Virus genome (UHGV): UHGV-0108399
DNA from: a virus
Reading direction: 5' to 3' (one strand)
Length of the DNA: 34,947 nt
Part shown: in pieces, positions 7,159 to 17,402 of the stretch
Numbering within the stretch: the stretch's first letter is position 1
Layout of the letters: the number at the start of each line of letters is the position of its first letter
Notes under the pieces: generated by a model
Seen by the model: only the letters and a program-made list of their open reading frames with translations
Databases searched by the model: none
Told to the model about the DNA's origin: nothing
Translations under genes and position numbers: made by a program

Positions 7159-7740
7159 ATGAACAACTCATGGTGGCAGGAACTAATGCATTTTTTCCTG
7201 CAAGGAATGACACTTAAACAGTTGATTCATATGCTAATCATCCTGATCATATTGATTATTGTTATGCCGGTAAGCGTAAAAGAATGGATAAACCTGCATA
7301 ATCCAGAAATCCTTCCTCATTACTGGATGTATTACATCCTGTTGTTTTGCGTTAGCTATGTGCTTAACGGCGTTGTTAATTCCGCTTATCACGCTGTGAC
7401 TGAAAGAATTGAGGTATTCGCTGCTCAGAAGCGCAAATCTAAAGAAGAGAAATACGTGCAAGATTTGTTTGATTCGTTAACTCTTGGAGAAAGAGCGTAT
7501 TTGGCACTCGCTGTAGTCGCTAATAACCAGCTACAAACGGAAAAGGGAAGCCCTGAAGCAATCTCATTGCTCGAAAAAGGGCTTCTTATTCGGATACCTT
7601 CTGCTACTGGATATCCTGAAATCGACCGTTTTGTTATCCCAGAACGCTATAGAAATGAGTGCTACATTAGGTTTGCTGGGAAGAAAGACAGTCTTATGGA
7701 TGAACTTATCGCTCAGGATAAGCACGGCAAAAACAAGTAA
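7159..7740 (+). CDS. sieB: Superinfection exclusion protein B (SieB)
   Basis: 193 aa; N-terminal MNNSWWQELMHFFLQGMTLKQLIHMLIILIIL... with transmembrane segments, matching lambda SieB as I recall it. Confidence 0.8.
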   Translation: MNNSWWQELMHFFLQGMTLKQLIHMLIILIILIIVMPVSVKEWINLHNPEILPHYWMYYILLFCVSYVLNGVVNSAYHAVTERIEVFAAQKRKSKEEKYVQDLFDSLTLGERAYLALAVVANNQLQTEKGSPEAISLLEKGLLIRIPSATGYPEIDRFVIPERYRNECYIRFAGKKDSLMDELIAQDKHGKNK

Positions 7741-7756
7741 TTAGCAAATTAATTTA

Positions 7757-8140
7757 TCATCTCGCCGTCAGTTGTTTTGATTTCCGGTAGCCTGCCGCGT
7801 AAATGGCTACGTTTGGAAGACATACACCAGTTTCTGGTTGCTTATGTCCAAACTCATTCGCGTACACAATGGCCGCTCGCTCCAGATTGCGTCTGTATTC
7901 TTTCTGTTGCCAGATCACGTCCTGTGCCATGAACTTAATTGGCTTAGCGTCTTCTATGCGCTCAGGCGTTTCGTGAGTACCTTTAGCCTGAATCTGCGCT
8001 CTGCTTAGAGTAGGGCGGTGTAATACTTCTGAACTTATTGCTTCTTCGCGGGCCAGTACGCCGTTAGCTAATGCCTTTGCCTTTAAACGCTCACGACGAC
8101 GAGAACGTGAATTGCCTTTGAACTGAGTTCTGCGTGTCAT
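7757..8140 (-). CDS. N: Antitermination protein N (P22 gp24 / phage 21 N type)
   Basis: Arginine-rich motif near N-terminus (GNSRSRRRERLKAKALANG), C-terminus AIYAAGYRKSKQLTAR; AGGAGG RBS; first gene downstream of pL and nutL. Confidence 0.75.
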   Translation of the reverse strand: MTRRTQFKGNSRSRRRERLKAKALANGVLAREEAISSEVLHRPTLSRAQIQAKGTHETPERIEDAKPIKFMAQDVIWQQKEYRRNLERAAIVYANEFGHKQPETGVCLPNVAIYAAGYRKSKQLTAR

Positions 8141-8542: not shown

Positions 8543-9202
8543 TTAACTAAATGTCTCTTCAGGCCACTGGCTGGCGATAACTTTCCCTACTACGGAACAG
8601 CTATCATTGCATGGGATCATTGGATATTGCGGGTTTAGTGGTTGTAGGAACACCTGACCGCTATCCCTGATCAGTTTCTTGAAGGTAAACTCCTCACCAC
8701 CAAGTCTGGCTATGCAGAAATCACCTGGCTCAACAGCCTGCTCAGGGTCAACGAGAATTAACATCCCGTCAGGAAAACTTGGCTTGGATCCTGTTGGTGC
8801 GGTCATGGAATTACCTTCAACTTCAAGCCAAAACGCACAATCACTGGCTTTTTTGGTTGTGCTGACCCATCTCTCCGCATCACCTTTGGTAAAGGTTCTA
8901 AGCTCAGGCGAGAACATCCCGGCCTGAACATGAGAAAAAACAGGGTACTCATATTGTTTTTTTACGGGGGCAGATGAGTATTCGCCAACAGGTGAAAATG
9001 TACCGTCGTGGTTGAATGAGACGTTATCAATACCAAGGTATTTAAACACCACACCAATCTCGTCAAGAGATGGATGACGAGATCCGCGCAACCAGTGACC
9101 AATTCCACCCTGCGTCATACCAAGCTCTTCAGCTAACTTCTCTTGAGTTATGCCGAGCTCTTTCATTCTGGATCTAGCCAGTTCATACCATTTCATTTTC
9201 AT
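8543..9202 (-). CDS. cI: CI-type prophage repressor (HTH N-domain + LexA/S24-like C-domain); start at 9202 or 9196
   Basis: C-terminal domain near-identical to the lambda cI C-domain ([39 protein letters not shown] ... [11 protein letters not shown]); N-terminal HTH ([27 protein letters not shown]) is not lambda-like. The track ORF start at 9277 lies in the operator region; AAGGA RBS supports 9202/9196. Confidence 0.85.
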
Positions 9203-9211
9203 ATCCTTATT

Positions 9212-9287
9212 ATTACGCTCTGTACTAAAACCATCCATGCACAAGATGTATTTTTTGTTTGCATTCCAAGAGTACATATCGTATTAT
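9212..9287 (+). promoter_or_regulatory. OR operator region with pR promoter (-35 TTGCAT 9259..9264, -10 TATTAT 9282..9287)
   Basis: Candidate operator palindromes at 9212..9226 (ATTAC-N5-GTACT), 9238..9252 (weak) and 9271..9285 (AGTAC-N5-GTATT); the last sits in the pR spacer. Divergent pRM not precisely mapped. Confidence 0.5.
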
Positions 9288-9313
9288 TGTTTCATGGTTA
9301 CTATGGAGGGCAT

Positions 9314-9529
9314 ATGAGCAACCTACGAAAATATCGAGAGTCACTGAATATCTCTCAAACAACCCTTGCTAAGGCGGTTGGATGCACACAGGGGGCTATC
9401 GGACATTGGGAATCTGGTCGTCGCTTCCCAGACCTTAAAACATGCCGTGCTCTTGTTGCGTGCCTAAACAAGTTAGGCGCAAAAGTCAGTCTTGATGACG
9501 TGTTCCCGCCGGAACACCAAGCCGCTTAA
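9314..9529 (+). CDS. cro: Cro-like repressor (HTH_XRE type, 71 aa)
   Basis: MSNLRKYRESLNISQTTLAKAVGCTQGAIGHWESGRRFP...; GGAGGG RBS; recognition region resembles the cI N-domain (TQG-IGHW). The track ORF 9143..9529 is an upstream extension across OR. Confidence 0.8.
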   Translation: MSNLRKYRESLNISQTTLAKAVGCTQGAIGHWESGRRFPDLKTCRALVACLNKLGAKVSLDDVFPPEHQAA

Positions 9530-9539
9530 TAAGCGGATC

Positions 9540-9585
9540 CGCTCTTTTCACAATGGACATTCGTCCTACGTCGCTGACAAAGCGA
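9540..9585 (+). promoter_or_regulatory. nutR (boxA CGCTCTTT at 9540..9547; boxB CGCTGACAAAGCG at 9572..9584)
   Basis: boxA-like octamer followed about 24 nt later by a boxB hairpin identical to the nutL boxB core; immediately downstream of cro. Confidence 0.65.
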
Positions 9586-9670
9586 GTCCCAAGATATCTG
9601 ACCAACTAAGGCCATATGTGTTTCCACGCATACCTTTCAACTAACTATTCACTAATGGAAATATTAAGAA

Positions 9671-9967
9671 ATGACACAAGCAAGTTACAGCAAGCCAACA
9701 CAGCGAGAAATTGATCGCGCTGAAACTGATTTACTCATCAACCTGTCAACGCTTACCCAGCGCGGTCTGGCAAAGATGATTGGCTGTCATGAATCGAAGA
9801 TAAGCAGAACGGACTGGAGATTTATTGCTTCGGTCTTGTGTGCTTTCGGAATGGCATCAGACATCAGTCCGATTAGCAGGGCTTTTAAGTATGCGCTTGA
9901 TGAAATCACAAAGAAAAAATCCCCGGCCGCCACCGAGGATTTTAAGCAAATTGATATGCAATTCTGA
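9671..9967 (+). CDS. cII: CII transcriptional activator
   Basis: 98 aa; HTH region and C-terminus ([18 protein letters not shown]) resemble lambda cII (KKRPAATERSEQIQMEF). Confidence 0.8.
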
Positions 9968-9999
9968 GGGAATTACTGGATCAATCCACAGGAGTAATT

Positions 10000-10146
10000 A
10001 TGACAAAACAACTCAGTCCTTACCAGGACAAAATTCACAAACACATACTACGTGATCGCTTCCTGTCCAGCTTCAAGCAGCCTGGTCGATTCCGGTCTGA
10101 GTTGGAAAAAGTGAAGCTGATGCAGAAGGAGAAAGGTCATGAGTAA
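10000..10146 (+). CDS. Small hypothetical protein (48 aa) between cII and O
   Basis: Hand-translated ORF ([48 protein letters not shown]) with AGGAG RBS 6 nt upstream; 3' end overlaps the start of the O-like gene. Confidence 0.3.
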
Positions 10147-10999
10147 TATTGCAACCGTAACACATTTAAGGCCTTCACAACGGCCTGTGGAGCGTCGTGT
10201 GGCAGAAGTTGAAGATGGTTATACCCGTCTTGCAAATGCCCTGTATGAAGAGCTTATCGGCGCAGATTTAACGAAAAATCAGAGCAAGGTTGCCCACGCC
10301 ATATGCCGTAAAACATACGGCTACGGTAAAAAGATGGATCGCATCTCTGATAGTCAGTTAGCTCAAATTACCAGGCTGCCAAGACAGAAGGTAAACAAGG
10401 CCAAGAATGAGCTTATCGCGATGAAGGTAATCCTTCGCGAAGGCCAGCAAATCGGGCCTAACAAGAACATCGAGGAATGGCAAATCGAAGGGTGTCACTA
10501 CTCTGGTGATAATGTCACTGCATTGGTGACAAAAAGTGTCACCAAAACGGTGACAGCGCTGTCACCAAAACAGGGACACACAAAAGAAACTATTACAAAA
10601 GAAAAAAGAAATAATAAAAACACTATGTCCGAAAGTGTTCGGACGGAGTGTGAAAAATCATCTGACCGTCACGAAGAAACCGACAAGGCATTCGAGGAAA
10701 TATTCTGGTGTGCAGGCATGCGGAAAGCCGGGAAGAAAAACGCAGCTTCAGCATTCAGAACACAGTTCAGGGAATGGCGTAAAACTACCAGGGGTACGGC
10801 AAGCGAGTTTGCCACGATGCTGGCAGAAGACATCGCATGCAGGAATGGTAAGCAGTTCGGATTCGACAGGTTGTTACCATCGAGCTACCTGAACGGTCAG
10901 CGCTGGAACGACGAAAAGCCAGAAACCATTCAACCACAATCCAAACCATCATCCGCAATCACCGTATCGAAAACTGGCTACGTGTTTTTCGACAGGTGA
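10139..10999 (+). CDS. O: Replication initiator, lambda O-like N-terminal domain
   Basis: N-terminal ~110 aa ([56 protein letters not shown] ... GPNKNIEEW) resembles the lambda O N-domain; C-terminal half is unrelated to lambda O. Confidence 0.8.
10504..10620 (+). repeat. Putative replication origin: GGTGAC / GTCACC iteron palindromes followed by an A-rich segment, inside the O-like gene
   Basis: GGTGATAATGTCAC, GGTGACAAAAAGTGTCACC and GGTGACAGCGCTGTCACC in tandem, then AAAAGAAACTATTACAAAAGAAAAAAGAAATAATAAAAA; architecture matches ori-lambda. Confidence 0.55.
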
Positions 11000-11106
11000 A
11001 CCATGAAATCAAAAATCAAATCGTTACTGGCCGCTGGTTATAACCACGGCTGGTTAAGTATTTCGTTTGTCGATTTCTGGTTTAAAAATCTCAATCTGAG
11101 GGAATC

Positions 11107-12987
11107 ATGACGCCAAGTGAACTTAGCGACCTGCTTTGGGCGCAGGTTGACAGGGTGGCTCCGCACCTGTTGCCAAACGGCAAGAAAGAGGGGCATGAGT
11201 GGGTTGCCGGTAACGTCAACGGTGACAAGGGAAACAGCCTTAAGGTCAACCTTAGCGGCAAGAAAAAATGGGCTGATTTCGCTGAGGGAGACGGCGGTGA
11301 CATGCTTGATTTGTGGATGGCATGTCGTGGAATTAACCTGCATCAGGCTATGCAGGAAGCGAAAGCCTTTCTCGGAATCAAGGATGACGATCACCATTTC
11401 GATGCCAAACGTGAGAAGAAATTCTCCAGACCTGACCGCAAGAAAATCGCCCGCTACGTTACCAGAACAGAATCCCATCTTGAGTACCTGCAATCGCGTG
11501 GCATATCGCCAGAAGTCGTAAAGCGCTACGAGGTTGTCAGCGGCAAGGTGTGGAATGGAGAACGAGAACTTGATGCACTGGTGCTTCCGTACAAACGCGA
11601 TGGTGAGTTGTTGCAGGTCAAGCGAATCAGCACTGAGCGCCCGGACGGGAAGAAAGTCATTATGGCAGAAGGTGATTGCGAACCTTGTCTGTTCGGATGG
11701 CAGGCTCTGGACGCTGGCGTGAGGGCGGTTGTACTTTGCGAAGGCGAAATTGATTGTATGAGCTATGCGCAATACGGCATCTCGGCGTTATCCGTGCCGT
11801 TTGGTGGCGGGAAAGGCGCTAAGCAACAGTGGATTGAGTTTGAGTATCACAACCTCGACAGGTTTGAGGAAATATTCATCTCGATGGATGTTGATGATGT
11901 TGGTCGTGAAGCCGCAAGGGAAATCGCAAGCCGACTCGGTGAACATCGTTGCCGTCTTGTTACTCTGCCGTACAAAGACATCAACGAATGCCTGATGAAC
12001 GGTGTTACCGAGGATGAAATCTGGCAGTACATCGGCACGGCATCCTACTTCGATCCTGAAGAACTCTACAGCGCGCGAGAGTTTTACCAGGACACTATCA
12101 ACGCTTTCTACGGCAAGCAGCAGTATCTGTTTAATCCACCGTGGGAATCTCTGGCAGATAAATTCCAGTTCCGTGAGGCAGAGTTGACGCTGGTCAATGG
12201 TGTGAACGGTCACGGAAAAACGGAGGTTGTCGGGCATATGGCACTTGAGGCAATGCGTCAGGGTGTGAAGACGTGCATCGCGTCACTTGAGCTGAAGCCT
12301 GGTATTCTCCTTAAGCGACTTACCCGTCAGGCAACGTGCTGCAAGATGCCGCCAGTGCTGGAAATTGACTCTGCATTTAAATTTTATGACGAAAGACTCT
12401 GGGTGTTTGGCCTGACCGGAACGGCGAAAGCCGACAGGCTGATCGAAATATTCGACTACGCTCGCCGCCGATACGGCATCCAGTTATTCATCATCGACAG
12501 CCTGATGAAATGCGGCATAGGTGACGATGATTATAACGGGCAGAAAGCATTTGTTGACTCGATTTGCGACTTCAAAAACAAAACAAACTCCCACGTCATT
12601 CTCGTTACTCACTCGCGAAAAGGAGACAGCGAAGAAAAACCAACCGGGAAAATGGACGTAAAAGGCTCTGGAGCGATAACAGACCTGACAGACAACCTTT
12701 TCATCATCTGGCGTAACAAGGCTCGCGAGAGAGCGTTACAGAGAGTTCAGAGTGGTGAAAAGATGTCAGAGAAGGACGAACAGCTACTGGCATCTCCGGC
12801 ATCTGTTTTGATGCTTGAAAAACAACGTAACGGCGAAGGTTGGGAAGGTGGCGTCCCGTTGTTCCTTGACGAGCAATCGCACCAGTTCCTGCAACTTGAA
12901 TCAGGATCGCCATATAGCTACATCGCCAATATGCCGAAATCGGAATATGACGAGGCGTGGCGACAGGAAAACGTGACGGAGTATTAA
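11107..12987 (+). CDS. Bifunctional primase-helicase (DnaG-like TOPRIM + SF4 DnaB/T7 gp4-like helicase)
   Basis: 626 aa; TOPRIM motifs (VVLCEGEIDCMSYAQ; ISMDVDDVGREAA); helicase Walker A NGVNGHGKTE and Walker B LFIIDSLMK; N-terminal region looks like a cysteine-poor relic of a primase zinc-binding domain. Confidence 0.8.
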   Translation: MTPSELSDLLWAQVDRVAPHLLPNGKKEGHEWVAGNVNGDKGNSLKVNLSGKKKWADFAEGDGGDMLDLWMACRGINLHQAMQEAKAFLGIKDDDHHFDAKREKKFSRPDRKKIARYVTRTESHLEYLQSRGISPEVVKRYEVVSGKVWNGERELDALVLPYKRDGELLQVKRISTERPDGKKVIMAEGDCEPCLFGWQALDAGVRAVVLCEGEIDCMSYAQYGISALSVPFGGGKGAKQQWIEFEYHNLDRFEEIFISMDVDDVGREAAREIASRLGEHRCRLVTLPYKDINECLMNGVTEDEIWQYIGTASYFDPEELYSAREFYQDTINAFYGKQQYLFNPPWESLADKFQFREAELTLVNGVNGHGKTEVVGHMALEAMRQGVKTCIASLELKPGILLKRLTRQATCCKMPPVLEIDSAFKFYDERLWVFGLTGTAKADRLIEIFDYARRRYGIQLFIIDSLMKCGIGDDDYNGQKAFVDSICDFKNKTNSHVILVTHSRKGDSEEKPTGKMDVKGSGAITDLTDNLFIIWRNKARERALQRVQSGEKMSEKDEQLLASPASVLMLEKQRNGEGWEGGVPLFLDEQSHQFLQLESGSPYSYIANMPKSEYDEAWRQENVTEY

Positions 12988-13016
12988 ATGACCATCTACA
13001 TCACTGAGCTTGTAAC

Positions 13017-13048
13017 AGGCCTGCTGGTAATCGCAGGCCTTTTTATTT
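13017..13048 (+). terminator. Intrinsic terminator after the primase-helicase gene (AGGCCTGC-loop-GCAGGCCT followed by TTTTTATTT)
   Basis: Perfect 8-bp GC-rich stem followed by a T-run on the plus strand. Confidence 0.6.
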
Positions 13049-13063
13049 GGGGGAGGGTAAATC

Positions 13064-13270
13064 GTGGCTGAGTTAATTTTCTCTGCATTGAGGATTCTCG
13101 GTGCTATGTGGATGGTGGTGACGTTCATTGTGGTTGCCAGCAGTTTTATCCGGTTGGTGGGTGAAGGTAAAGACATGGTGGGTGTGCTTTTCGGTAGCAT
13201 TCTCATGTGGGTGATTATCGGTGTTGCGCCTGTCGCTGTAGCAAAAATGGCGTGGCGTTTTGTGAGTTGA
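13064..13270 (+). CDS. Small hydrophobic membrane protein (68 aa, two predicted TM helices, GTG start)
   Basis: GGGGGAGGG RBS 7 nt before GTG; sequence almost entirely hydrophobic (ILGAMWMVVTFIVVASSF ... VLFGSILMWVIIGVAPVAVA). Confidence 0.45.
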   Translation: MAELIFSALRILGAMWMVVTFIVVASSFIRLVGEGKDMVGVLFGSILMWVIIGVAPVAVAKMAWRFVS

Positions 13271-13287
13271 ACTGATGGTAAGTACCG

Positions 13288-13665
13288 ATGGACGAATCAA
13301 GAAAGCAGTTTGAAGAAAGTTGGTTGCGACGTGGTGGCGAATCTTCAGACCTTATCCGTTACCCTGAAAATCACCATGAAATTGGCAGCGGTAATATTGG
13401 TGGTCAATACGTGATGGACGATGTTCAAGGCCACTGGCAAACGTGGCAGGCATCACGAGCAGCTATTGAACTGGATATCGACTGGCCCGAATCGAATGAC
13501 GACTTTTGGAAAGATGGTGAAGAAGGTGCTTATGCGATGGGTTATGAGGATGGGAGAGACAAAACGGTAATTGCAGTAATGAAAGCTATCAGAGCCGCTG
13601 GAATTAAAGAGAAGAATTTCGATGAAGCAAATATACATACTTCGCAACGAAGCAATCAGAAATAA
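13288..13665 (+). CDS. Hypothetical protein (125 aa)
   Basis: Track ORF upstream of ninB, overlapping its start by 44 nt. Confidence 0.45.
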   Translation: MDESRKQFEESWLRRGGESSDLIRYPENHHEIGSGNIGGQYVMDDVQGHWQTWQASRAAIELDIDWPESNDDFWKDGEEGAYAMGYEDGRDKTVIAVMKAIRAAGIKEKNFDEANIHTSQRSNQK

Positions 13666-14068
13666 CGCCATAGACGCCATTCTCTCACTACCCATCGACG
13701 AAAAGTCACCCCACGAAGTCCACGTTAGAGAACCCAAACGCAGCAAAGCGCAGAATGACCGTATGTGGCCGATGCTGAACGATGTTTCGCGTCAGGTGCT
13801 ATGGCATGGTCAACGGCTGGCGCCGGAAGACTGGAAAGACCTGTTCACTGCCCTGTGGCTTAAGACCAAAAAACTGGAGCAACGAAGTGTTCCTGGTATC
13901 GACGGTGGCGTTGTCATGCTTGGCGTGCGTACCAGCAAAATGCGAAAGGCCAGCATGACTGAGCTTATCGAAATCATGTTCTGGTTCGGCTCAGAGCGCA
14001 ACGTGCGGTGGAGTGATGACTCCCGGCGAGAGTATGAATGGTCACAACGAAAAGGGAGGGCGGCATGA
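13622..14068 (+). CDS. ninB: NinB (Orf-family recombination mediator)
   Basis: 148 aa; conserved segments ([19 protein letters not shown] ... WKDLFTA ... SERNVRWSD) resemble lambda NinB. Confidence 0.8.
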
Positions 14069-14247
14069 GACGACAGCGACGAAGTTTCACCGACATAATC
14101 TGCGAAAACTGCAAATACCTTCCAACGAAACGCTCCAGAAACAAACGCAAGCCAATCCCAAAAGAATCTGACGTAAAAACCTTCAATTACACGGCTCACC
14201 TGTGGGATATACGGTGGCTTAGAGAACGTGCGAGGAAAACAAGGTGA
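14065..14247 (+). CDS. ninE: NinE-like small basic protein (60 aa)
   Basis: [60 protein letters not shown]; GGAGGG RBS; ATGA overlap with the ninB stop. Nin-family name is from memory and may be the wrong member. Confidence 0.5.
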
Positions 14248-14414
14248 TTGACCCAAATCGAAGTTACGAACAAGAAAGCGTCGAGCGGGCTTTAACGTGC
14301 GCTAACTGCGGTCAGAAGCTGCATGTGCTGGAAGTTCACGTGTGCTCCGATTGCTGCGCAGAACTGATGAGCGATCCGAATAGCTCAATGTACGAGGAAG
14401 AAGACGATGAATGA
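14244..14414 (+). CDS. Small Cys-rich protein (56 aa; CxxC ... CxxCC), NinF-like
   Basis: Hand-translated: (V)[55 protein letters not shown]; GTGA overlap with the upstream stop; 3' end overlaps the start of the Rha gene. End coordinate approximate. Confidence 0.4.
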
Positions 14415-15132
14415 GTTAATAAATGGCAATGCCATCAAAATGACAAGCATTGAAATCGCTGAGTTGGTAGAAAGTCGCCATAGCAATGTAAAAGTATCCA
14501 TAGATAGATTGGTGAAACGTGGCGTTATCAAGCCTCCTGCATTGCAGCACACTAACATAATCAATGATTTAGGTGTTATTACCGGGAAGCGTGATTTCTA
14601 CGTCTTCGAAGGCGAACAAGGAAAGCGAGACAGTATTGTCGTTGTAGCCCAGTTGTCGCCGGAATTCACCGCTCGTCTTGTTGACCGTTGGCGAGAGCTT
14701 GAAGAAACTGCGGTTAATATCCCCAAAACGCTACCAGAAGCGTTGCGCCTTGCTGCTGATCTTGCTGAGCAGAAAATGCAACTGGAAAACCAGCTCGCAA
14801 TTGCCGCACCTAAAGTTGAGTTTGCCGATCGAGTTGGCGAGGCCAGCGGAATTTTGATTGGAAACTTTGCAAAGGTTGTTGGAATTGGTCCAAACAAACT
14901 GTTTGCGTGGATGCGCGATCACAAAATCCTTATTGCTTCAGGTTCCCGGCGCAATGTGCCAATGCAGGAATATATGGATCGCGGCTATTTCACAGTGAAA
15001 GAAACAGCGGTCAACACAAATCACGGAATACAGATATCGTTCACCACAAAAATCACCGGACGTGGTCAACAGTGGCTGACCAGAAAGCTGCTCGATAACG
15101 GAATGCTGAAAGTAACAGGGGAGGCTGCTTAA
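14407..15132 (+). CDS. Phage regulatory protein Rha / antirepressor (Rha N-domain + KilA-C/ANT C-domain)
   Basis: N-terminal IEIAELVESRHSNVKVSIDRL... resembles Phage_pRha; C-terminal FAKVVGIGPNKLFAWMRDHKIL... resembles the KilA-C antirepressor domain. Confidence 0.7.
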   Translation: MNELINGNAIKMTSIEIAELVESRHSNVKVSIDRLVKRGVIKPPALQHTNIINDLGVITGKRDFYVFEGEQGKRDSIVVVAQLSPEFTARLVDRWRELEETAVNIPKTLPEALRLAADLAEQKMQLENQLAIAAPKVEFADRVGEASGILIGNFAKVVGIGPNKLFAWMRDHKILIASGSRRNVPMQEYMDRGYFTVKETAVNTNHGIQISFTTKITGRGQQWLTRKLLDNGMLKVTGEAA

Positions 15133-15422
15133 TGGCTAACCTACGCAAAGAAGCACGCGGCAGAGAATGCCAGGTACGTATTTACGGCGTATGCAATGGC
15201 AATCCTGAAACTACAGTTCTGGCACATTACCGGATGTCTGGAATTTGCGGAACGGGAATGAAACCTGACGACCTGATCGGTGCATGGGCTTGTAGCGCGT
15301 GTCACGATGAAATCGACCGACGCACCCATAATCTCGACAACAAAGACGCCAGACTTTACCACCTCGAAGGCGTGATCAGGACGCAGGCGATACTGCTGAA
15401 GGAGGGGAAGATTAAGTCATGA
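15132..15422 (+). CDS. YbcO-like DUF1364 Cys-rich protein (putative nuclease)
   Basis: 96 aa; RECQVRIYGVCNGNPETTVLAHYR ... CSACHDEIDRR resembles DLP12 prophage YbcO; sits immediately upstream of rusA, as in DLP12. Confidence 0.7.
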   Translation: MANLRKEARGRECQVRIYGVCNGNPETTVLAHYRMSGICGTGMKPDDLIGAWACSACHDEIDRRTHNLDNKDARLYHLEGVIRTQAILLKEGKIKS

Positions 15423-15781
15423 ACGAATATCAGTTTGTGCTTCCTTACCCGCCGTCGGTGAATACCTACTGGCGAAGACGGGGAAGCCAATACTACATCA
15501 GCGATAAAGGCCAGAAATACCGAAAAGACGTTCAGCAAATCATCCGCCAACTCAAGTTAGACATTTTCACCAAATCACGACTCCGCATAAAAGTCATCGC
15601 AGACGTTCCAGACTCCCGCCGCCGCGACCTCGATAACATCCTGAAAGGTTTACTCGACTCCCTTATCCATGCCGGATTTGCGGAAGACGACGAGCAATTC
15701 GATGACATTCGCGTAATTCGTGGTGTGAAAGTACCAGGCGGACGGCTTGGAATAAAAATCACCGAACTGGAGAACGTATGA
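15419..15781 (+). CDS. rusA: Holliday junction resolvase RusA
   Basis: 120 aa; LPYPPSVNTYWRRRG ... DVPDSRRRDLDNILKGLLDSLIHAGF ... GGRLGIKITE resembles E. coli RusA. Confidence 0.85.
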   Translation: MNEYQFVLPYPPSVNTYWRRRGSQYYISDKGQKYRKDVQQIIRQLKLDIFTKSRLRIKVIADVPDSRRRDLDNILKGLLDSLIHAGFAEDDEQFDDIRVIRGVKVPGGRLGIKITELENV

Positions 15782-15966
15782 ACGCCACAATTCAAACGAT
15801 ACCAGAGCTTCTTATCAAGACACGAGGCAATCAGACCGAAGTGGCGAGGATGCTTTCCTGCGCAAGAGGAACGGTGCTCAAGTACAACCGAGACAGCAAA
15901 GGCGAGCGTCACGTAATAGTTAACGGCGTCCTGATGGTCACGCCAGGCAAAAAGGGAAGACGATGA
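15778..15966 (+). CDS. ninH: NinH-like small DNA-binding protein
   Basis: 62 aa; TIPELLIKTRGNQTEVARMLSCARGTVLKY ... HVIVNGVLMV resembles lambda NinH. Confidence 0.6.
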   Translation: MNATIQTIPELLIKTRGNQTEVARMLSCARGTVLKYNRDSKGERHVIVNGVLMVTPGKKGRR

Positions 15967-16481
15967 GCATAAGAGAGCTAAATCTCACCAAAGAACAGCA
16001 CGAGTGGCTGAATGGCTGGCTTGAACTGTGGGGCGCATGGGTTTATTCAGGTCGTCTGGAAAAGCGCATGAGCAGCGTAATAGCGAAGTTCATGGAGAGC
16101 GTAGAGCCGGGAAGAGTTATGACAAGGCCAATGTGTAATGATGATGATGGAATGTTGATTTCTCAGGTCGTCGATTCCGTCATGTACATTGACAAGAAAG
16201 CCTTTGGCATCCTCCTCAGCTACTACGCTCATGGTTCATCTAAGCGAGCAATTGCATCCTACTATCACGCGACTGCAAAGCCACGCAAGATGTGTGGACG
16301 TGGTGGCGATGGATGGAGAAAACCTTCACTGGCAACCTGTAGAAACGAAATTGACGACATCCTGAAAGCGTCGTTATTTGTTTTGTACCAACCAATGCAA
16401 AATGCTTTCAAAATGCGTAAACGTGTTGAGAAAGTTAAGCATGTTGCTGTTAAGAGCCTTGACATGCAATTATCCATTTAG
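15963..16481 (+). CDS. Q: Late-gene antiterminator Q (non-lambda type)
   Basis: 172 aa; between ninH and the late promoter and lysis cassette; resembles the Phage_antitermQ family by memory. Confidence 0.65.
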   Translation: MSIRELNLTKEQHEWLNGWLELWGAWVYSGRLEKRMSSVIAKFMESVEPGRVMTRPMCNDDDGMLISQVVDSVMYIDKKAFGILLSYYAHGSSKRAIASYYHATAKPRKMCGRGGDGWRKPSLATCRNEIDDILKASLFVLYQPMQNAFKMRKRVEKVKHVAVKSLDMQLSI

Positions 16482-16488
16482 CCATAAT
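16459..16488 (+). promoter_or_regulatory. Late promoter pR' (-35 TTGACA 16459..16464, 18-nt spacer, -10 CATAAT 16483..16488)
   Basis: Consensus -35 hexamer overlapping the 3' end of Q; predicted start about 16495; the qut site is presumed to overlap. Confidence 0.5.
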
Positions 16489-16498
16489 TAGAAGGTAA

Positions 16499-16540
16499 GC
16501 TGCCGTTAGTGACTCTTAAGTTGCAACGGTGGCTTTTTTT
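16499..16540 (+). terminator. tR'-like intrinsic terminator (9-bp stem with two G-U pairs, followed by T7 run)
   Basis: GCTGCCGTT ... AACGGTGGC-TTTTTTT immediately downstream of the predicted pR' start, giving a short terminated late transcript unless Q-modified. Confidence 0.55.
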
Positions 16541-17078
16541 GTTTGCACAACAGGTAAGAGCATTGAACCCGCAGACCTCGCGGAATTGGTTAAAGGTGCC
16601 GCGCAGTGCTCTTATCGTTGTGGTGAATACGCAGGCTGATGCGTTAATCAGGTGAACGAGATACCCGCCGGTCCGTGATATGGCACACCGTGCCGGTCAT
16701 ATCTGCCGCGGTTAGGTTTACGAGGATTTCGTAAAGCTGGTCTAGGGTGAAGCCGTGAAAGCGGAGGAAGTAAAACGAGGCGTCGGTACACGCCTATCGT
16801 CATTAAGTCGGAGTTCAGCACCGACCGCCACAACCCAAACTGAGCCGTAGCCACTGGCTGTCCTGAATTCATCAGTGATAGTTATGCTGCGGCCTTCTAC
16901 ACATGATCTTCGTGAAAGCGGGCGGCATGAGGTTGCGCTAACAACCTCCTGCCGTTTTGCCCGTGCATATCGGTCACGAACAAATCTGATTACTAAACAC
17001 AGTAGCCTGGATTTGTTCTATCAGTAATCGACCTTATTCCTAATTAAATAGAGCAAATCCCCTTATTGGGGGTAAGAC

Positions 17079-17402
17079 ATGAAGATGCCAGAAAAACATG
17101 ACCTGTTAGCCGCCATTCTCGCGGCAAAGGAACAAGGCATCGGGGCAATCCTTGCGTTTGCAATGGCGTACCTTCGCGGCAGATATAATGGCGGTGCGTT
17201 TACAAAAACAGTAATCGACGCAACGATGTGCGCCATTATCGCCTGGTTCATTCGTGACCTTCTCGACTTCGCCGGACTAAGTAGCAATCTCGCTTATATA
17301 ACGAGCGTGTTCATCGGCTACATCGGTACTGACTCGATTGGTTCGCTTATCAAACGCTTCGCTGCTAAAAAAGCCGGAGTAGAAGATGGTGGAAATCAAT
17401 AA
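17079..17402 (+). CDS. S: Holin (lambda S, class I; dual-start S107/S105)
   Basis: 107 aa, essentially identical to lambda S as I recall it ([41 protein letters not shown]...). Confidence 0.9.

Follow-up and report, generated by a model that had tools for sequence, protein, structure and literature searches.

A conserved gene for a predicted two-helix membrane protein follows tR2 and ninA in the nin region of a P22-like prophage

The window analyzed here, the whole 34,947-nt virus genome UHGV-0108399, is a P22-like prophage with cI, cro, cII, N-like, SieB-like, Q and holin genes. Within its early right operon, directly after the primase-helicase gene and ninA and inside the nin region, lies a gene for a hydrophobic 68-aa protein, in the position that the initial annotation had given it. 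The features that bear on this locus are:

7159-7740: SieB-like gene, in its usual place
7757-8140, minus strand: N-like antitermination gene (PHROG 271, 3e-39)
9540-9585, plus strand: nutR-like site after cro, with boxA (CGCTCTTT, 9540-9547) and boxB (UCGC-UGACAAA-GCGA, 9571-9585)
11107-12987, plus strand: primase-helicase of 626 aa, toprim plus DnaB-like ATPase (Toprim_2, 3e-12; DnaB_C; PHROG 239, 2e-171)
12988-13071, plus strand: ninA, a 27-codon ATG ORF (MTIYITELVTGLLVIAGLFIWGRVNRG) encoding one hydrophobic helix (ORF list, PHROG 5907)
13017-13040, plus strand: tR2 hairpin, an 8-bp stem (AGGCCTGC/GCAGGCCT) with an 8-nt loop (TGGTAATC) (terminator scan, folding)
13041-13048, plus strand: tR2 U-tract (TTTTATTT) (read from the sequence, terminator scan)
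13052-13056, plus strand: Shine-Dalgarno sequence of the 68-aa gene (GGAGG), inside the G-run 13049-13057 and 7 nt before the GTG
13064-13270, plus strand: 68-aa membrane-protein gene (PHROG 1165), with its GTG start at 13064 (ORF list, HMM, conservation)
13288-13665, plus strand: next nin-region gene, of the phiTE_015 family (PHROG 343), 17-18 nt past the stop of the 68-aa ORF
15963-16481: Q gene
17079-17402: holin gene (PHROG 126)

With its boxB, the nutR-like site at 9540-9585 is of the P22 type. The primase-helicase is annotated in E. coli MB46 as a ‘toprim domain-containing protein’.

A strong intrinsic terminator had been described directly after the primase-helicase gene, and the 8-bp hairpin and U-tract bear this out: six of the eight stem pairs are G-C, the site is listed first among terminator-like sites in a scan of 9000-17000, and the hairpin folded alone reaches -15.7 kcal/mol (z = -3.1), a value equaled by 0 of 200 shuffles. 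The terminator does not, as that description implied, occupy a plain intergenic gap, since the whole hairpin is contained in the ninA ORF. Hairpin and U-tract together (AGGCCTGCTGGTAATCGCAGGCCTTTTTATTT) are those of lambda tR2 (NC_001416, locus L090 1097-1128), with no base differing; the lambda ren-ninB interval reads AAAAGATGACCATCTACATTACTGAGCTAATAACAGGCCTGCTGGTAATCGCAGGCCTTTTTATTTGGGGGAGAGGGAAGTCATGA. The map position is also that of lambda, 3' of the replication genes, 5' of the nin genes and within ninA, whereas the flanking genes differ (ren and ninB in lambda, the primase-helicase and 68-aa genes in the window). The homologous block is labeled terminator tR2 in HK620, where it lies inside ninA, rho-independent terminator in mEp235, and ‘terminator; homology to phage lambda tR2’ in the Sf6 record. 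The hairpin is unchanged in 84 of 90 loci, all observed stem substitutions lead to G.U wobble pairs, and those stem changes that can be scored in the ninA frame are synonymous. Based on the G+C-rich hairpin with its U-tract, the identity with lambda and the map position, the terminator in the window is identified as lambda tR2.

In vivo measurements on lambda tR2 (Li et al. 2016, PMC4824070) gave a maximum termination efficiency of ~0.9, with basal read-through of ~10% and repression of the terminator when a ribosome stops within ~27-30 nt of the hairpin. The stop codon of the primase-helicase gene lies 29 nt 5' of the hairpin, a spacing that by analogy is about the distance that gave near-full terminator strength in that study. 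Hairpin, U-tract and position show where unmodified pR transcripts are predicted to halt, at 13041-13048 and hence 5' of the ribosome binding site of the 68-aa gene. If read-through were also ~10% here, some N-independent expression of the 68-aa gene could occur.

The ninA peptide matches PHROG 5907 at 1e-18. Its ATG abuts the stop codon of the primase-helicase gene (TAAATG), it holds tR2, and its end overlaps the start of the 68-aa gene (GTGGCTGA), ninA ending 8 nt inside that gene with its stop codon 5 nt in; this is the architecture of NinA, which starts at the upstream stop and ends at the start of the next gene, and the overlap logic with both neighbors is common to the window and lambda-type ninA. 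Its only differences from lambda NinA are residue 9 (V/I) and a few residues at the end, the C-terminus being GRVNRG in the window, GRGKS in lambda and GRGKHG in Salmonella phages. These end residues change with the gene that comes next. ninA is annotated in HK620 (‘similar to P22 NinA’), HK630 and SPN9CC, and the Sf6 record lists both ‘gene 45, similar to phage 21 NinA’ and ‘bsq6; boundary sequence’. Substitution types across codons 2-21 number 8 synonymous and 6 conservative non-synonymous, which is mild evidence that the NinA peptide may matter; breakage of the C-terminus by indels in the G-run in two loci (L045 and L087), the missing N-terminus in the HK022 type and the dependence of the end residues on the next gene count against selection on the peptide. 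The start site of NinA has been described as ‘not weak’, and its translation cuts termination by only ~10% (PMC4824070). NinA has no stop codon on RNAs that end at tR2, and in a synthetic construct this was linked to a two-fold loss of an upstream reporter, for which ribosome stalling, tmRNA rescue and decay were proposed (PMC4824070). Terminator and ninA are thus known, annotated textbook features, with nothing new about them.

The 76-nt block from 12988 to 13063 is found at ≥90% identity in 385 of 50,697 phage records, including lambda, 933W, H-19B, Sf6 and P22-like phages. In an alignment of the region (59 distinct copies from 84 sequences, the window plus 83 loci), at least six unrelated upstream contexts give way to homology precisely at the ninA ATG, and the upstream joints are either TAAATG or ATGA overlaps that supply the upstream gene's stop codon. 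In seven loci the ATG of ninA is changed to GTG, and a start codon is thereby kept. In HK022-type phages the joint falls on the first base of the hairpin, so that the hairpin is retained and the N-terminus of ninA is absent. On the right, homology often stops just past the TGA of the 68-aa ORF and is followed by a phiTE_015-family gene, ninB, or other genes. Judging from these joints, modules of lambdoid mosaics meet at the ninA span, a conserved boundary sequence.

There are 99 ORFs of ≥30 aa within the same 8 kb, and an ORF of such size alone means little; the 68-aa ORF is taken as real rather than a chance frame because it is conserved, in length and by dN/dS. The protein matches PHROG 1165, a family of unknown function, over residues 1-68 of 68 (6e-36), and the length of precisely 68 codons is kept in 88 of 89 related loci. 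The start codon GTG is replaced by ATG, without a shift in nucleotide position, in Salmonella phages; 81 of 90 loci have GGGGAG(A/G)GTAAATC-GTG as the block from Shine-Dalgarno to start, and the Salmonella type has GGGGAGAGGGAAGC-ATG. The excellent ribosome binding site and GTG start reported initially are thus upheld, with GGAGG 7 nt before the GTG at 13064, and the conservation proposed as a check on the ORF is found in both its length and its dN/dS (0.26-0.47).

Three allelic types of the gene can be distinguished: A, which includes the window; B (HK620, mEp213, 720R6); and C (Salmonella P22-like phages). Their ends are shared and their middle is different, with amino-acid identity to type A of 54-58% for type B and 44% for type C. 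Nei-Gojobori dN/dS is 0.47 within A, 0.34 for A vs. B and 0.26 for A vs. C, with dS > 1; values of 0.3-0.5 indicate only moderate constraint. Along the gene, pN/pS ranges from 0.12 for the last eight residues through 0.36 for the loop and 0.49 for the first 13 codons to 0.5-0.67 for the helices. Every frame other than the sense frame gained stops in at least some copies; the antisense ORFs at 12901-13206 and 13073-13300 were rejected as genes on the same grounds, having acquired stops in other alleles. A shorter gene model starting at an internal ATG, as in mEp235 and HK630, would remove the conserved K/R10 and half of the first transmembrane (TM) helix. Since constraint on the first 13 codons is similar to that on the remainder of the gene, the GTG start is supported over the internal ATG. 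Feature names returned by tblastn would make the 68-aa ORF itself ‘NinA’; the records place ninA at the 84-nt ORF upstream. From these comparisons among alleles, the 68-aa ORF is shown to be a genuine and already catalogued phage gene under purifying selection, and the copy in the window is an ordinary member of type A without unusual features.

A search of 5.8 billion clustered proteins returned 193 protein clusters; among the 120 listed, 114 are exactly 68 aa, and all source-named clusters among the matches listed come from Escherichia or Salmonella. The gene is found by tblastn in 107 phage records, and the window-type coding sequence is present in 409-522 of 5426 complete E. coli genomes (~8-10%). 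The window copy is 100% identical to the MB46 prophage copy and 84.8-97% identical to those of HK022 and mEp235. Many Stx2a-converting phages carry the gene, and its host phages as a whole (lambda-like, HK022, P22-like, Stx podoviruses) have very different tails and entry routes. Family members such as HK022 gp58, orf70 of Stx2-converting phage 86, SPN9CC_0027, mEp213 gp58 and WP_141021653.1 are all annotated as ‘hypothetical protein’.

More distant relatives were sought with a profile search of 1.84 billion representative proteins, which gave 26 matches, all from the same small family. About a dozen of the 26 are proteins of 60-85 aa that are 25-36% identical to the window protein; they retain W16, W49, G53, P56 and W64 and have lost T20 and S27. 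Each of 17 diverse family members matches PHROG 1165 alone. Genes for distant relatives were located in prophages of Izhakiella capsodis and Erwinia endophytica and on three metagenomic viral contigs; a scan of viral contigs with P0162 found no relatives. At the well-resolved loci their slot lies between O-like plus DnaB-/P-like replication genes and ninB, and they are usually fused to the upstream early-operon neighbor through an ATGA overlap. Neither tR2 nor ninA is present upstream of the distant-relative genes in the located loci. The PHROG 1165 family is thus an old, optional occupant of the first slot of the nin region, and its association with tR2 in phages of E. coli and Salmonella is a secondary one. 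The upstream and downstream neighbors of the 68-aa gene vary freely.

The product was initially described as a hydrophobic protein with two TM segments, and this description holds. Its GRAVY is 1.49, the hydrophobic segments span residues ~11-29 (TM1) and ~39-60 (TM2), and an AlphaFold model based on a 30-sequence alignment (pLDDT 89.7) has helices at 2-33 and 38-67. Residues 30-38 form the loop between TM1 and TM2 (GEGKD), and TM2 is followed by the conserved tail AKMAWRFVS. Conserved positive residues (K/R10, K61, R65) lie on the N- and C-terminal sides, while the loop (R30...G35-K36-D37) is net neutral; from this charge placement the positive-inside rule predicts both termini and the tail in the cytoplasm and the loop in the periplasm. 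The topology check that had been proposed thus yields two helices in a predicted N-in/C-in inner-membrane hairpin, by a rule applied here to few charges. Constraint is strongest on the 8-residue C-terminal tail (K61, W64, R65, F66), which has a net charge of +2, and on G35-K36-D37 of the loop. Conservation falls on Trp, Gly and Pro packing positions and on the tail AKMAWRF; small-residue motifs occur in TM2 (type A has G40xxxG44, and G44, G53 and P56 are conserved), and no polar stripe or face is conserved across the whole PHROG 1165 family.

Homology of the 68-aa protein to a characterized protein was not found in sequence, profile or fold searches. Scans of the 68-aa protein and NinA against Pfam, NCBIfam and PADLOC returned no matches (for PADLOC, 0 families at E ≤ 1), Pfam gave only noise (E ≥ 0.05) for the 17 diverse family members, and a profile search of PDB sequences gave nothing under E = 0.49. 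A Foldseek comparison of the AlphaFold model with PDB and BFVD returned generic helical hairpins at E > 0.7 (ATP-synthase c subunits, LH1); helical hairpins carry no function signal at the fold level. Rfam gave only two sub-threshold chance matches in 12500-13800. Full-text literature searches found no paper with the peptide strings AKMAWRF, MTIYITEL or LVGEGKD, and searches on the nin region and transmembrane proteins turned up nothing concerning the 68-aa ORF.

A scan for sigma-70 consensus sites found no sigma-70-like promoter on the plus strand of 11016-14070, and tR2 lies 24 nt upstream of the start codon of the 68-aa gene. With no promoter and tR2 so close upstream, the gene should be off in a lysogen. 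Since an N-like gene and nutR are both present in the window, N-modified polymerase is expected to read through tR2, in agreement with the initial proposal that expression depends on terminator read-through. N would load onto RNA polymerase at nutR, and the modified polymerase would then pass tR2. The 68-aa gene would thus be the first delayed-early gene after tR2, transcribed from pR only, with its product made in lytic growth or induction and not in the lysogen. Translation would start from its own strong Shine-Dalgarno sequence and GTG, and ribosomes finishing ninA could re-initiate there too.

Several classes of element were considered for the 68-aa gene and rejected. It is not a moron: there is no plus-strand promoter of its own in 11016-14070, the terminator is upstream rather than downstream, and the next gene follows 17-18 nt after the stop. 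Type I toxins (Hok/TisB-like) have a single TM segment, ≤50 aa and an antisense RNA, whereas the protein here has two TM segments and 68 aa; no minus-strand promoter/terminator pair overlaps 12988-13270, and Rfam finds nothing there. A described defense or exclusion protein was dismissed for lack of homology to PADLOC families or to the SieA, SieB, Rex and Imm PHROGs, PHROG 1165 being the only one matched.

How the locus functions can be read in several ways. One could suppose that no functional protein is made and that the frame is kept open by the recombination boundary block or by an RNA or regulatory element, given that the adjoining ninA/tR2 block shows nucleotide-level conservation as a boundary sequence, that two antisense frames are largely open in type A, and that the annotators of mEp235 and HK630 called only the shorter internal-ATG version. 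This is extremely improbable: the sense frame alone is open across alleles with dS > 1 and dN/dS of 0.26-0.34, length is invariant, GTG changes to ATG at the same site, relatives at 25-35% identity keep W16, W49, G53, P56 and W64, and Rfam finds nothing. P22 SieA and SieB, lambda RexB and HK97 gp15 are lysogen-membrane proteins that block or abort incoming phages, and the initial annotation suggested superinfection exclusion or abortive infection for the 68-aa protein as well. A prophage-expressed factor in the lysogen membrane would suit a temperate phage's small, hydrophobic membrane protein and a family carried by many E. coli prophages (409-522 of 5426 complete genomes). Prophage-borne exclusion or abortive infection, however, calls for expression in the lysogen, where this gene should be off. 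The suggestion is weakened further by the strong terminator 24 nt before the start codon with no promoter-like site upstream, the lack of a promoter-gene-terminator unit as in morons, the failure of PADLOC and exclusion PHROGs to match, the separate SieB-like gene already in the window, and the ATGA overlaps that join distant relatives into the early operon; we consider it very unlikely.

Membrane permeabilization or lysis timing (pinholin, antiholin or viroporin-like), in which hairpins would oligomerize, collapse the proton-motive force and adjust lysis or switch off functions of the host, draws on the small-residue motifs of TM2 (G40xxxG44 in type A, G44, G53, P56) and on a size and N-in/C-in two-TM layout equal to those of class II holins. 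The gene is nevertheless outside the lysis cassette of a phage that has its own holin (17079-17402), its expression would be early rather than late, a charged C-terminal tail and a conserved polar face are lacking, and holin PHROGs and Pfam give no matches, which leaves this role unlikely. We give a similarly low probability to modulation of a host inner-membrane regulator in the lysis-lysogeny decision or replication, for example by inhibiting FtsH/HflKC or countering RexB/SieB. FtsH/HflKC degrade CII, CIII and Xis in lambda, and lambda Ren counters Rex. A position beside replication and the ren/nin accessory slot that is kept from E. coli to Erwinia phages, the tightest constraint falling on the cytoplasmic juxtamembrane tail, as for a docking peptide, and independence of virion type would all accord with such a modulator. 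The argument is purely positional and analogical, though, without homology to CIII, Ren or known inhibitors, and the protein would be expressed after tR2 and so later than CII. A more elaborate scheme, which we judge quite unlikely, treats ninA, tR2 and the 68-aa ORF as one block through which N would control both the stability of the replication mRNA and the synthesis of NinA and the 68-aa protein. RNA ended at tR2 would leave ninA without a stop codon, causing stalling, tmRNA rescue and decay of the replication-gene message; N-dependent read-through would restore the ninA stop and pass ribosomes directly to the 68-aa ORF. N would thereby govern two small membrane proteins, NinA (one TM) and the 68-aa protein (two TM), the latter Imm-like or anti-abortive-infection in role, in that it might close the inner membrane to competitors or antagonize membrane abortive-infection effectors.

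The reading that we prefer treats the region as a standard lambdoid junction cassette plus an optional nin-region gene. Deletions in P22 and Sf6 show that the nin region as a whole can be dispensed with in the laboratory (PMC11016777, PMC5630979), and the 68-aa protein would be an accessory factor, itself dispensable, whose tail and loop bind a partner in the host inner membrane and which forms no pore. A binder is favored over a pore because the protein lacks both a conserved polar stripe and a charged tail; we hold this step with low confidence. Taken jointly, tR2 within ninA, N-dependent delayed-early expression, a hairpin protein translated from its own Shine-Dalgarno sequence and a lytic-phase role as accessory binder form a somewhat probable account of the locus. 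Exclusion during lytic growth, or a membrane-perturbing activity, is possible for the 68-aa protein. As its specific role we tentatively favor, by analogy with T4 Imm and with considerable doubt, a lytic-phase barrier that keeps additional phage DNA from entering the infected cell; an entry block specific to one receptor or route fits poorly with the varied tails and entry routes of the host phages.

The 68-aa gene is thus an already catalogued, well-conserved ‘hypothetical protein’ gene with a clear expression logic. Its family is small and taxonomically narrow, yet occurs in ~8-10% of complete E. coli genomes. If the protein controls phage entry, membrane physiology or host defenses at induction, this would add a function to the nin region, and such control would also bear on the induction biology of Stx phages.

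Among known classes of small phage membrane proteins, class II holins such as pinholin S21-68 have ~68-71 aa and two TM helices in an N-in/C-in arrangement. The predicted topology of the 68-aa protein shares this layout. Its location differs, the gene belonging to the early right operon and lying 3.8 kb upstream of the holin gene at 17079, and it is missing the charged C-terminal domain; in comparison with pinholin S21-68, no dual-start motif was seen in the gene and no holin HMM matched. T4 Imm is an 83-aa two-TM inner-membrane protein, made early in lytic growth and dispensable in the laboratory. A sequence relationship to Imm was not detected (no immunity PHROG at E ≤ 1, for the 68-aa protein or the 17 diverse family members), and the phages that carry the 68-aa gene are temperate and of several tail types, unlike the setting of T4 Imm. 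The likeness lies in architecture and timing: both proteins belong to the same class of two-TM inner-membrane proteins, and expression of the 68-aa gene in the early part of the lytic program would match that of Imm.

The lambda-type intrinsic terminator tR2 lies within a short gene, ninA, located between the primase-helicase gene and the gene for the predicted two-TM, 68-aa membrane protein (PHROG 1165). Three features of the window are listed here:

7159-7740, plus strand, SieB-like gene (PHROG 1301, ‘superinfection exclusion; inhibits SieB’, 2e-122)
12557-12530, minus strand, sigma-70-like promoter match (10/12; TCAACA-16-TATAAT)
12988-13071, plus strand, ninA, a 27-codon ORF whose product is a single hydrophobic helix

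The primase stop directly adjoins the ninA start (TAAATG), the ORF encloses the entire tR2 hairpin, and its 3’ end overlaps the start of the 68-aa gene by 8 nt. RNAs ending at tR2 would lack the ninA stop codon; non-stop translation of the lambda ninA copy is discussed by Li et al. 2016 (PMC4824070). Relatives L045 and L087 (phage 720R6) have 1-2 extra G in the G-run that follows the U-tract (window 13049-13053), shifting the ninA frame to give 24- and 44-aa products and leaving the downstream start of the 68-aa gene unaffected. These insertions could be true variants or homopolymer sequencing errors. The minus-strand promoter match falls within the primase-helicase gene and could represent either a chance match or an antisense promoter.

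Three alleles of the 68-aa gene were distinguished by comparing window 13064-13270 with L084 (HK620), L085 (SPN9CC), L087 and L089. Their 5’ and 3’ ends are near-identical while the middle (codons ~4-48) is swapped and highly diverged, a sequence pattern that suggests intragenic recombination. Distant PHROG 1165 relatives of 63-69 aa (L091-L093, L096-L098) are present in prophages of Erwinia endophytica and Izhakiella capsodis, as well as in phages from metagenomes; these genes lie directly 3’ of replication genes with ATGA overlap joints, and no terminator was found at these loci.

The SieB-like gene, which lies to the left of cI and of the minus-strand N-like gene (7757-8140), is likely a dedicated exclusion or abortive-infection module of this phage.

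Despite 100% identity over 12900-13400, the window as a whole differs in sequence from the E. coli MB46 prophage. Compared with window 14407-15132, the MB46 segment (L003, 4508-5732) carries ~500 bp of additional sequence, which separates ninF from the gene for the KilAC antirepressor and includes a partial Rha gene; thus, the window is not simply the MB46 prophage.

In HK022-type phages (L001 [HK022], L023, L039, L058) homology begins with the first nucleotide of the tR2 hairpin, the ninA N-terminus is absent, and the hairpin lies directly 3’ of the TAA of another upstream gene. Under the distance rule of PMC4824070, tR2 in these phages would be repressed during translation of that gene.
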